Below are positions 7,564 through 8,262 of a DNA stretch of 8,262 bases, one piece after another. The notes under the pieces were generated by a model that worked only from the letters and a program-made list of their open reading frames with translations, was not told where the DNA came from and searched no databases. Both the position numbers and the translations under genes were made by a program. Where the stretch lies: IMG/VR virus record IMGVR_UViG_2529292873_000013; one strand, given 5' to 3'. Position 1 is the stretch's first letter. Each line of letters opens with the position of its first letter. The stretch is from a virus. Lineage: Duplodnaviria; Heunggongvirae; Uroviricota; Caudoviricetes.

Positions 7564-7592
7564 GGAAAAAACAAAACCCGCCGAAGCGGGTT
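7564..7592 (-). terminator. intrinsic terminator ending the hok mRNA
   Basis: Minus-strand RNA: aacccgc-uucg-gcggguu hairpin followed by uuuguuuuuu (plus 7566..7592). Confidence 0.65.
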
Positions 7593-7659
7593 AAGTGCGG
7601 GTGCGTTGAGGATGCCTGATTCATCAGAGGTGGCGAGGGATTTCTCCCCCGCCGGTCTC

Positions 7660-7815
7660 TTACTCCTCAGGTTCGTAAGCTGTGAAGACAGCGACCTCCG
7701 TCTGGCCGGTTCGGATTCGTACCTCGCAGAGGTCTTTCCTCGTTACCAGTGCCGTCACTATGACGGTTAAACAGATGACGATCAGGGCGATTAACATCGC
7801 CTTTTGCTGCTTCAT
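7660..7815 (-). CDS. hokD: Hok-family type I toxin (HokD/RelF-like), 51 aa
   Basis: ATG at 7813..7815 gives MKQQKAMLIALIVICLTVIVTALVTRKDLCEVRIRTGQTEVAVFTAYEPEE: one transmembrane helix and the conserved Cys/Glu Hok tail. An in-frame upstream ATG at 7872 (track ORF 7660..7872) is in the position of mok. The mRNA has complementary 5' and 3' elements and a terminator. Confidence 0.9.
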   Translation of the reverse strand: MKQQKAMLIALIVICLTVIVTALVTRKDLCEVRIRTGQTEVAVFTAYEPEE

Positions 7816-7828
7816 AGCCTGCTTCTCC

Positions 7829-7857
7829 TTGCCTTTCGGCGCGTAAGAGGCTAACCT
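7829..7857 (+). promoter_or_regulatory. putative sok antisense promoter
   Basis: Plus-strand -35 TTGCCT (7829..7834), 17-bp spacer, -10 TAACCT (7852..7857). Same placement and similar hexamers to the plasmid R1 sok promoter as I recall it. Confidence 0.45.
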
Positions 7858-7863
7858 ACGTTT

Positions 7864-7935
7864 GTGAAGCATAGATTGGGCCTCAGATTAATGTTAAGCG
7901 TCTTGCAGGACGCGTAATGTTAACTGGGGCTTTTC
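7864..7935 (+). ncRNA. sok: putative Sok-like antisense RNA, complementary to the hok/mok leader
   Basis: Inferred from the promoter above; transcript would be antisense to the mok-position start at 7872. Downstream stem GTCTGCCT...AGGCAGAC at about 7939..7968. Ends are approximate. Confidence 0.4.
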
Positions 7936-7990
7936 TCTGTCTGCCTTACGGTGGCATGCCCGAGGCAGACAGCCTCAAGCACCCGCAGCA

Positions 7991-8018
7991 ATTCTACTTA
8001 ACTCTCGCTTTACAGCAA
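7991..8018 (-). promoter_or_regulatory. putative hok mRNA promoter
   Basis: Minus-strand -35 TTGCTG (plus 8013..8018), 16-bp spacer, -10 TAGAAT (plus 7991..7996). Predicted 5' end GGGUGCUUGAGGCUGUCUGCCUC resembles the R1 hok mRNA 5' end. Confidence 0.5.
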
Positions 8019-8033
8019 ACCGTTTTGCCCGAT

Positions 8034-8047
8034 ATGGGAATTCCCAT
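8034..8047. repeat. perfect 14-bp palindrome ATGGGAATTCCCAT
   Basis: Read directly from sequence; lies between the stop of the 34-aa ORF and the hok promoter -35. Confidence 0.9.
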
Positions 8048-8058
8048 ACGGAATGAAT

Positions 8059-8163
8059 TCAGTTCCCCAGGCGCTCCATCAAAAACACAACCAGGCAGTA
8101 AACACCCACAACAGCAATAACAGCCAGAGCGCCTTCCATTACCAGTGAAATATCATCCGACAT
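8059..8163 (-). CDS. small hydrophobic protein, 34 aa, strong ribosome-binding site
   Basis: GGGAGGG 4 nt upstream of ATG (8161..8163); MSDDISLVMEGALAVIAVVGVYCLVVFLMERLGN, stop TGA at 8059..8061. Below the track's length cutoff. One predicted transmembrane helix with an acidic N-terminus. Confidence 0.4.
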   Translation of the reverse strand: MSDDISLVMEGALAVIAVVGVYCLVVFLMERLGN

Positions 8164-8262
8164 ATTCCCTCCCTTGGTGTGAATCCCGGCGAACGTTTTT
8201 ACCCCCACCGACAAATAACATATACTAGAAAAGCAATAGCTATAGCAACGCCTGCAAATGCA

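Follow-up and report, generated by a model that had tools for sequence, protein, structure and literature searches.

Results

An ECs_2755-family gene directly upstream of hok

The window analysed here is the whole of an 8,262-nucleotide stretch of Caudoviricetes DNA (IMG/VR record IMGVR_UViG_2529292873_000013), and the segment considered below matches lambdoid prophages of E. coli O157:H7, among them the Sakai prophage Sp14, at 99-100% identity. At positions 8059..8163, on the minus strand, lies a reading frame of 34 codons plus stop, here called ORF-B, which encodes the peptide MSDDISLVMEGALAVIAVVGVYCLVVFLMERLGN. Its ATG occupies 8163-8161 and its stop codon 8061-8059, as read from the sequence, and a GGGAGGG Shine-Dalgarno (SD) sequence (8167..8173, minus strand, running 8173->8167) stands 3 nt 5’ of the ATG. 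The frame and the near-ideal ribosome-binding site described in a first-pass annotation of this DNA are thus both present, as is the proposed location just 5’ of hok, which lies downstream on the same strand. The frame had also been described as unannotated, which is incorrect: public records list it as ECs_2755 / NP_310782.1 / WP_001278460.1, a “hypothetical protein” of Sakai prophage Sp14. The gene is placed in the early-right arm of a lambda-like prophage; in Sp14, cI/cro, the replication genes and several hypothetical genes, including ECs_2756, are found on its 5’ side, and hok, DUF968, rusA and Q follow in that order on its 3’ side.

A strong SD is conserved in all haplotypes carrying this 34-aa form (34-type), with AGGAGGG in sister haplotypes, and the other ORF-B alleles described below carry AGGAGG or GGAG at similar spacing. 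Within the peptide, residues 11-29 make up a single 19-residue hydrophobic stretch (Kyte-Doolittle mean 2.72), flanked by an acidic N-terminus and a C-terminal tail of 5 residues; the net charge is -3, and an AlphaFold model consists of one helix over residues 2-33 (pLDDT 90). The earlier description of one predicted transmembrane helix with an acidic N-terminus is borne out by these values, and the modelled product would be a single-helix inner-membrane micro-protein, in keeping with the “inner membrane, 1 TM” prediction already given for ECs2755 (PMC5597208). Across the ORF-B peptides the net charge is either -3 or 0, and a basic tail is absent throughout. Because the charge distribution differs between alleles, with an acidic N-terminus in the 34-aa form and a Lys near the N-terminus in the 29-aa forms, the topology of the peptide is uncertain.

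Searches with the ORF-B peptide and its alleles against Pfam, PHROGs, NCBIfam, PADLOC and PDB sequences gave no meaningful match, and a profile search of 1.84 billion representatives returned only the ORF-B family itself, in 23 clusters that are all Escherichia/Shigella-like. Within this narrow range the family is common: among 5426 complete E. coli genomes, 672 carry the 34-aa allele, most often as 2 copies, and 1737 carry a 29-aa allele, designated T. ORF-B is multicopy in O157:H7. The T allele has no RefSeq feature in 24 of 25 sampled records (e.g., among H85-H104), and a WP entry exists for one of its variants (P0113).

In the literature, a full-text search for “ECs2755” returned no match. 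ORF-B is not mentioned in the hokW paper, the 2025 Hok survey or the 2025 small-membrane-protein review, nor is it among the type I toxins in the searched text of Fozo et al. (2010; PMC2887945), and the Neuhaus 2016 and Tree 2014 supplements do not include it. The paper on the sRNA HnrS deals with a different prophage region.

ORF-B is heavily translated in growing cells

Ribosome occupancy, which the first-pass annotation had singled out as a check on the frame, is documented in published data. ECs2755 is one of the 250 short annotated control genes of Hücker et al. 2017 (PMC5597208, S2 Table), and all Ribo-seq figures given here are the literature values from that study. In LB, ECs2755 has an RNA RPKM of 132.6, a Ribo-seq RPKM of 885.0, an RCV of 6.79 and a coverage of 0.95, the group mean RCV in this medium being 1.55; in BHI, the corresponding values are 167.7, 116.7, 0.76 and 0.99 (PMC5597208). 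The same study independently lists another Sakai copy, not identical in sequence, under the name XECs145 as a “novel” translated gene; in LB its RNA is 79.1, its Ribo-seq 346.1, its RCV 4.35 and its coverage 0.99 (PMC5597208). Two Sakai copies are thus strongly translated in uninduced cultures; Ribo-seq reads in multicopy prophage DNA can multi-map, and these two copies do differ in sequence. The mok/hok gene ECs2754, which at 213 bp falls inside the length range, is missing from the translated short-gene table of the same study (PMC5597208).

The transcript levels are informative as well. The short upstream genes ECs2758 and ECs2760 have RNA RPKM values of only about 6-9 (PMC5597208), so that in uninduced cells ORF-B RNA stands roughly 15-20-fold above that of the upstream early genes. 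From this difference we infer a promoter, active in uninduced lysogens, between ECs2758 and ORF-B, and spontaneous induction could account for part of the ORF-B RNA level.

Four diverged alleles with a protein-like pattern of variation

The ORF-B family comprises four diverged alleles of 29-34 aa, all of which retain the frame together with a strong SD and a hydrophobic helix; the frame is therefore conserved across homologous loci, the other property on which the first-pass annotation had made its proposal depend. Besides the 34-aa form, these are the 29-aa allele T of phages Tritos, Evi and mEp460 ((GTG)MLVLKCALAIAAVMAIYCLAVVLMDRLSD, with an AGGAGG SD), a third allele of 30 aa at locus L173 (MLAALKGFVAILAVVAIYCLVVVLMDRLSD), and a 29-aa allele on Shigella/EIEC pINV-type plasmids (MLVLKGTLAIAAVMTIYCLIVVLMERFSD, 137 records). 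Nucleotide identity among the alleles is only 60-80%, with pairwise dN/dS values of 0.16-0.38, and the second codon position shows the fewest changes in every comparison.

The two common alleles can be examined further from their internal variation. Segregating sites fall mainly on third codon positions (0/2/7 and 3/1/10 over the three positions), counts that come from related haplotypes and do not represent independent events. Whereas the 120-nt flanks contain 16 and 85 indel columns, ORF-B contains 0; its nucleotide diversity (0.031-0.034) is also below that of the flanks (0.05-0.09); and the frame is intact at 78 of 78 and 86 of 87 loci. Amino acid replacements are conservative (A/V/I/M, D/E, R/H), and a core motif A(I/V)YCL..(V/I).LM(D/E)R is retained, within which YCL and LM(D/E)R are invariant. 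Judged by these comparisons, the variation has the pattern of a protein under purifying selection, and ORF-B is a bona fide protein-coding gene and not a chance ORF.

Copies of the pINV allele lie, for example, at 2498-2587 and 2516-2605 of two loci from Shigella flexneri / E. coli plasmids (L293 and L294, respectively). The pINV copy is missing from the plasmid gene tables.

The hok segment and its linkage to ORF-B

Downstream of ORF-B, the minus strand carries the mok/hok reading frames (7660..7872), with mok starting at 7872 and hok running 7815->7660, followed on their 3’ side by an intrinsic-terminator-like hairpin (7592-7575, minus strand). The hok mRNA 5’ leader / sok region is recognised at 7810..7984 on the minus strand (Rfam RF01794, 116 bits, E = 1.3e-27). 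A putative hok promoter at 7991..8019 (minus strand; -35 TTTGCT/TTGCTG at 8019-8013, -10 TAGAAT at 7996-7991) was read from the sequence and from alignment to the homologous site of phage Tritos, where the scan calls TTGGCG-17-TAGAAT; the sok/hok-leader match of Rfam, whose 5’ end lies at 7984, fits this position. Where hok ends and the terminator region follows (7571-7652, minus strand), Rfam also gives a match to isrK that stays below threshold (27 bits versus a gathering threshold of 50) and probably reflects no more than the terminator hairpin.

The three prophage alleles of ORF-B all adjoin this promoter on the same strand, with 9-50 nt between the ORF-B stop and the hok -35. Among 34-type loci with enough flanking sequence, hok is the next gene in 74 of 77, the exceptions being IS insertions or a point change; for T-type loci the linkage holds in 86 of 87. 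Exactly 37 nt separate the ORF-B stop from the start of the hok leader at 85 of the 87 T-type loci, so that the stop codon abuts the hok -35, and the L173 allele has the same layout directly 5’ of hok. Scans of the 34-type window and of the T-type locus detected no terminator between ORF-B and hok, and because of this the ORF-B transcript should run into the hok region, which begins 37-80 nt away.

On the other side of ORF-B, the neighbours are wholly different, comprising ORF-A/ECs_2756, a divergent FRG-domain gene of the candidate defence family PDC-S15, or an ORF6N gene. The divergent gene encodes a 444-aa FRG-domain protein, lies upstream of the 29-aa allele in phage Tritos (L003 1163-2497) and likewise at T-type loci, and its product matches PDC-S15 of PADLOC with E = 1e-98; the presence of this neighbour therefore places the ORF-B/hok spot in a hot spot for accessory or defence genes. 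IS-like inserts in the hok start region that leave ORF-B intact were seen at two 34-type loci (L011 and L061) and on a Shigella flexneri chromosome (L005).

The linkage to hok is not reciprocal. Many phages carry hok without ORF-B, as do about 70% of the hok-like places in E. coli genomes, and one identical major Hok allele is found behind 34-type ORF-B, T-type ORF-B, ORF-A alone, or neither. No co-variation of ORF-B type with Hok sequence was detected; furthermore, loci with ORF-B alleles that share only about 60-65% identity have hok segments that agree at 93-95%, which suggests that hok recombines independently. On the pINV-type plasmids, an intact ORF-B (ATG start, AGGAGG SD) is followed by only a decayed remnant of the hok promoter and leader, and icsP begins about 260-290 nt 3’ of ORF-B. 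ORF-B is tightly syntenic with prophage hok and evidently not dependent on it, and its position 5’ of hok is best read as an old synteny at a prophage accessory-gene hot spot and not as an obligate partnership.

A palindrome in one version of the hok-proximal segment

Between the ORF-B stop and the hok -35, at 8029..8051 (no strand), lies a palindrome that had been noted at 8034..8047 and proves to be even longer: a perfect 16-nt core, TATGGGAATTCCCATA, spans 8033-8048 within a 23-nt stretch. The 16-mer is not remarkable by itself in the window, since 13% of simulated windows of the same composition have one. The 23-nt stretch, however, is a 1-nt-deleted copy of a perfect palindrome of 22 or 24 nt, (C)CGATATGGGAATTCCCATATCG(G), at sister loci, where the 22-nt form CGATATGGGAATTCCCATATCG is found at 53 of 81 loci (most of the 34-type) and the 24-nt form in PPompW phages. 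The palindrome ends 42 nt ahead of the hok leader box, with 60 nt at a small number of loci, and this spacing holds whatever gene lies upstream, be it ORF-B (46 loci), Paa/AdfO (25) or another (6). The palindrome is absent from the T, L173 and pINV alleles; together with the constant spacing under any upstream gene, this indicates that it belongs to the hok-proximal segment, of which it marks one version, and not to ORF-B.

At 22-24 nt and at a fixed distance from hok, the palindrome is not a product of chance. It is centred near -55 of the hok promoter and may serve as an operator, an RNA hairpin or a recombination boundary. We considered an intrinsic terminator and rejected it, as the scan called none and the stem is followed by AUAUCGGGCAAAACGG, with no U tract; the RNA fold z-score at the palindrome, -1.76, is unremarkable.

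The exact 20-mer GATATGGGAATTCCCATATC is also found in viral contigs that have no relation to hok, at least 40 in number and 27-66% in GC content (IMG/VR, L174-L292; examples are L218, L257, L283, L236 and L267), which is far above chance for a 20-mer. In about 25 of these contigs it lies inside KilA-N/Bro-N-like genes, where it encodes DMGIPIS, and about 12 present other contexts, some with a second similar palindrome nearby.

ORF-A and promoter-like sites at the window edge

At the end of the window, the minus strand carries the 3’ 20 codons and stop of a second small frame, ORF-A (8199..8262), which continues beyond the window and encodes 25 aa in full, MSRPDAFAGVAIAIAFLVYVICRWG. The stop codon occupies 8201-8199; the ATG lies beyond the window, at 8276-8274, and overlaps the ECs_2756 stop as ATGA, an overlap present in all 130 of the 130 ORF-A copies at the loci fetched. 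Variation in ORF-A is biased towards third codon positions (9/6/19). Relatives are found in 99 phage records, frequently with an Ea22- or DUF551-type gene in front, and in phages 606R7 and pPE4 ORF-A alone lies directly 5’ of the hok promoter.

The first-pass annotation had proposed a weak promoter in this region, TTGCTA (8248-8243) and TATATG (8224-8219) separated by 18 nt. Our sigma-70 calls were based on two hexamers with at least 9 of 12 consensus matches, including an invariant T at -7; the second hexamer of the proposed site ends in G, and the site, which lies inside the ORF-A coding sequence, fails the scan. The scan does pick out a 9/12 match on the plus strand, TTTACC-17-TATACT (8198..8226), in a region with 2 such matches compared to 0.4 expected. 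This site points away from ORF-B, would yield an RNA antisense to ORF-A over its start and 5’ half, and has a -10 that is not conserved in 606R7-type ORF-A; as a promoter it is unsupported.

Comparison with type I toxin loci

The first-pass annotation had likened ORF-B to small membrane toxins, and this reading is not supported: the size class and the hydrophobic helix agree, but the peptide matches no toxin family, is acidic or neutral, and is heavily translated. As a small hydrophobic membrane peptide of fewer than 60 aa, ORF-B does resemble a type I toxin, whereas the silencing of translation during normal growth that is typical of these toxins is not observed, translation being high in both LB and BHI (PMC5597208). 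No Pfam, NCBIfam or PHROG match to a Hok/Gef (PF01848) profile was obtained for the peptide. With respect to hok-type RNA control, the Rfam sok model matches only at 7810-7984, with nothing over 8059-8262, and permissive thresholds yielded the sok/hok leader and sub-threshold noise only. As to an antisense RNA on the plus strand, for which the first-pass annotation had advised a scan, the window shows neither an Rfam match nor a plus-strand promoter facing ORF-B. In the T allele only, a weak opposite-strand match, TTAACT-18-TAAAAT (L003 3116->3087), lies antisense to ORF-B, and this match is not conserved in the other ORF-B alleles.

Discussion

That ORF-B exists and is translated was known beforehand, and as a finding it is a well-grounded but unspectacular “hypothetical small protein”. 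We favour, with a probability of roughly 0.6, the reading that ORF-B is a lambdoid prophage gene for a constitutively made, non-lethal accessory inner-membrane micro-protein, and not a silenced type I toxin. Under this reading, the lysogen would express ORF-B from a promoter lying between it and ECs_2758, making the gene “moron”-like rather than purely pR-dependent; its transcript would read into the hok promoter and leader; and the peptide would insert into the inner membrane as a single alpha-helix, where it could modulate a host or phage membrane component.

Comparison with characterised small proteins helps to frame this proposal. Like the products of the Hok/Gef family (PF01848), to which the hokD/hokW-type gene downstream belongs, ORF-B is predicted to be a single-helix inner-membrane peptide with a Cys in the helix, and it is likewise prophage-borne, on the same strand as hok and with a probably overlapping transcript. 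It differs from Hok/Gef in showing no sequence or profile similarity, in its length (29-34 aa versus about 50 aa) and in its strong translation in growing cells; it also lacks the Lys-rich N-terminus, the C-terminal periplasmic domain, the overlapping mok-like frame and the sok/fbi-type RNA elements. With Ibs, Ldr, ShoB, TisB, DinQ and ZorO it shares the size class, the hydrophobic helix, the restriction to Escherichia/Shigella and the multicopy state in O157:H7, but unlike these it has an exposed strong SD, an acidic or neutral peptide and ribosome occupancy in unstressed cells, and no antisense RNA was found. AcrZ, MgtS, KdpF and CydX (PMC12648545) resemble ORF-B in having about 30 aa, one TM helix and short termini, and ORF-B would also behave like them, being efficiently translated and non-lethal at its native level; this proposed likeness is one of function, there is no homology, and ORF-B resides on prophages and pINV rather than in the core genome. 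Its behaviour seems closest to that of constitutively made small inner-membrane accessory proteins, by analogy and not by membership. The genomic position adds a further parallel, as ORF-B sits in the variable region between the replication genes and nin/Q, next to hok, with other alleles adjoining the PDC-S15 candidate defence gene or an ORF6N gene, and its RNA exceeds that of the upstream early genes by the margin given above in uninduced cells; a moron is defined by its own promoter and terminator, and ORF-B is called moron-like from its position and RNA level.

Several other explanations deserve consideration. ORF-B might be the membrane toxin of an unrecognised type I pair, held in check by an antisense RNA and arranged in tandem with hok/sok. 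Its size and single hydrophobic helix, comparable to Ibs, Ldr, ZorO or TisB, would fit such a role, as would its residence in a prophage beside an existing type I system, and the promoter-like match in the T allele (L003 3116->3087) would yield an RNA antisense to ORF-B. However, that growing cells translate ORF-B heavily speaks against a Hok-like toxin or any other of type I: the two Sakai copies reach RCVs of 6.79 and 4.35 under conditions in which mok/hok is missing from the translated-gene table, and the SD is strong and apparently unsequestered. Nor does the peptide, with its net charge of -3 or 0 and no basic tail, resemble any toxin family, and the 34-type locus offers neither an Rfam match nor an antisense promoter, the T-type match being unconserved. 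A classic type I toxin is therefore unlikely, and we regard the unrecognised pair as unlikely too; strong translation is compatible with toxicity at a higher dose.

The constant neighbourhood invites a different interpretation, in which ORF-B is a dedicated partner of Hok, a membrane antidote or co-factor, and the prophage loci are three-component hok loci. Three diverged alleles do lie directly 5’ of hok despite wholly different upstream neighbours, the terminator-free interval makes a single transcript probable, and each of the two proteins has one membrane helix containing a Cys. Yet the same major Hok allele is found with either common ORF-B type, with ORF-A only, or without any small ORF, which is evidence against an obligate partner, and some 70% of the hok-like places in E. 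coli genomes do without ORF-B; moreover, hok is near-identical (93-95%) across loci whose ORF-B alleles are only about 60-65% identical, and the pINV copy has stayed intact, under purifying selection, after the loss of hok. We consider a dedicated partnership very unlikely on these grounds. It is also conceivable that the peptide itself is irrelevant, translation being tolerated or acting in cis as an upstream frame, so that read-through into hok, or nothing at all, is what matters. The stop codon and the hok -35 are only 9-50 nt apart, many short ORFs with Ribo-seq signal lack any known function, and the family is taxonomically narrow, being confined to Escherichia/Shigella (23 clusters among the 1.84 billion representatives). 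Against this, it is the amino acids and not just the frame that are conserved, as seen in the dN/dS of 0.16-0.38, the conservative replacements and the invariant YCL and LM(D/E)R; ORF-B is free of indels amid indel-rich flanks, and it is kept on pINV, where hok is gone. Of the explanations weighed here we hold this one to be the least probable.

A bolder reading, which we regard as a decidedly long shot, would give the ECs_2755-family product a working part in the membrane, linked either to the hok locus or to the membrane physiology of prophage and host. Such a constitutively made peptide could tune Hok pore formation, or could itself confer exclusion or fitness. If true, a membrane role would explain both the retention of ORF-B directly 5’ of hok in thousands of prophages and its persistence just ahead of icsP on the virulence plasmid of Shigella once hok had decayed there. 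Should the peptide have a role, an uncharacterised and very widespread family would join the few prophage-encoded small membrane proteins.

More broadly, prophage hok/sok loci often carry one or two tightly packed, translated micro-ORFs that are undescribed in hok surveys, and many of these “two-part” loci would, if the membrane role holds, be three- or four-gene modules consisting of ORF-A, ORF-B, mok/hok and sok. ORF-A forms a family of its own, of 25-27 aa with the pattern M..P(E/D)AF...ICRWG and one hydrophobic helix, a copy of which lies at L002 9180-9257. Through the ATGA overlap it is translationally coupled to the gene upstream, and in some Shigella proteins the ORF-A segment forms the C-terminal tail of a DUF551 protein.
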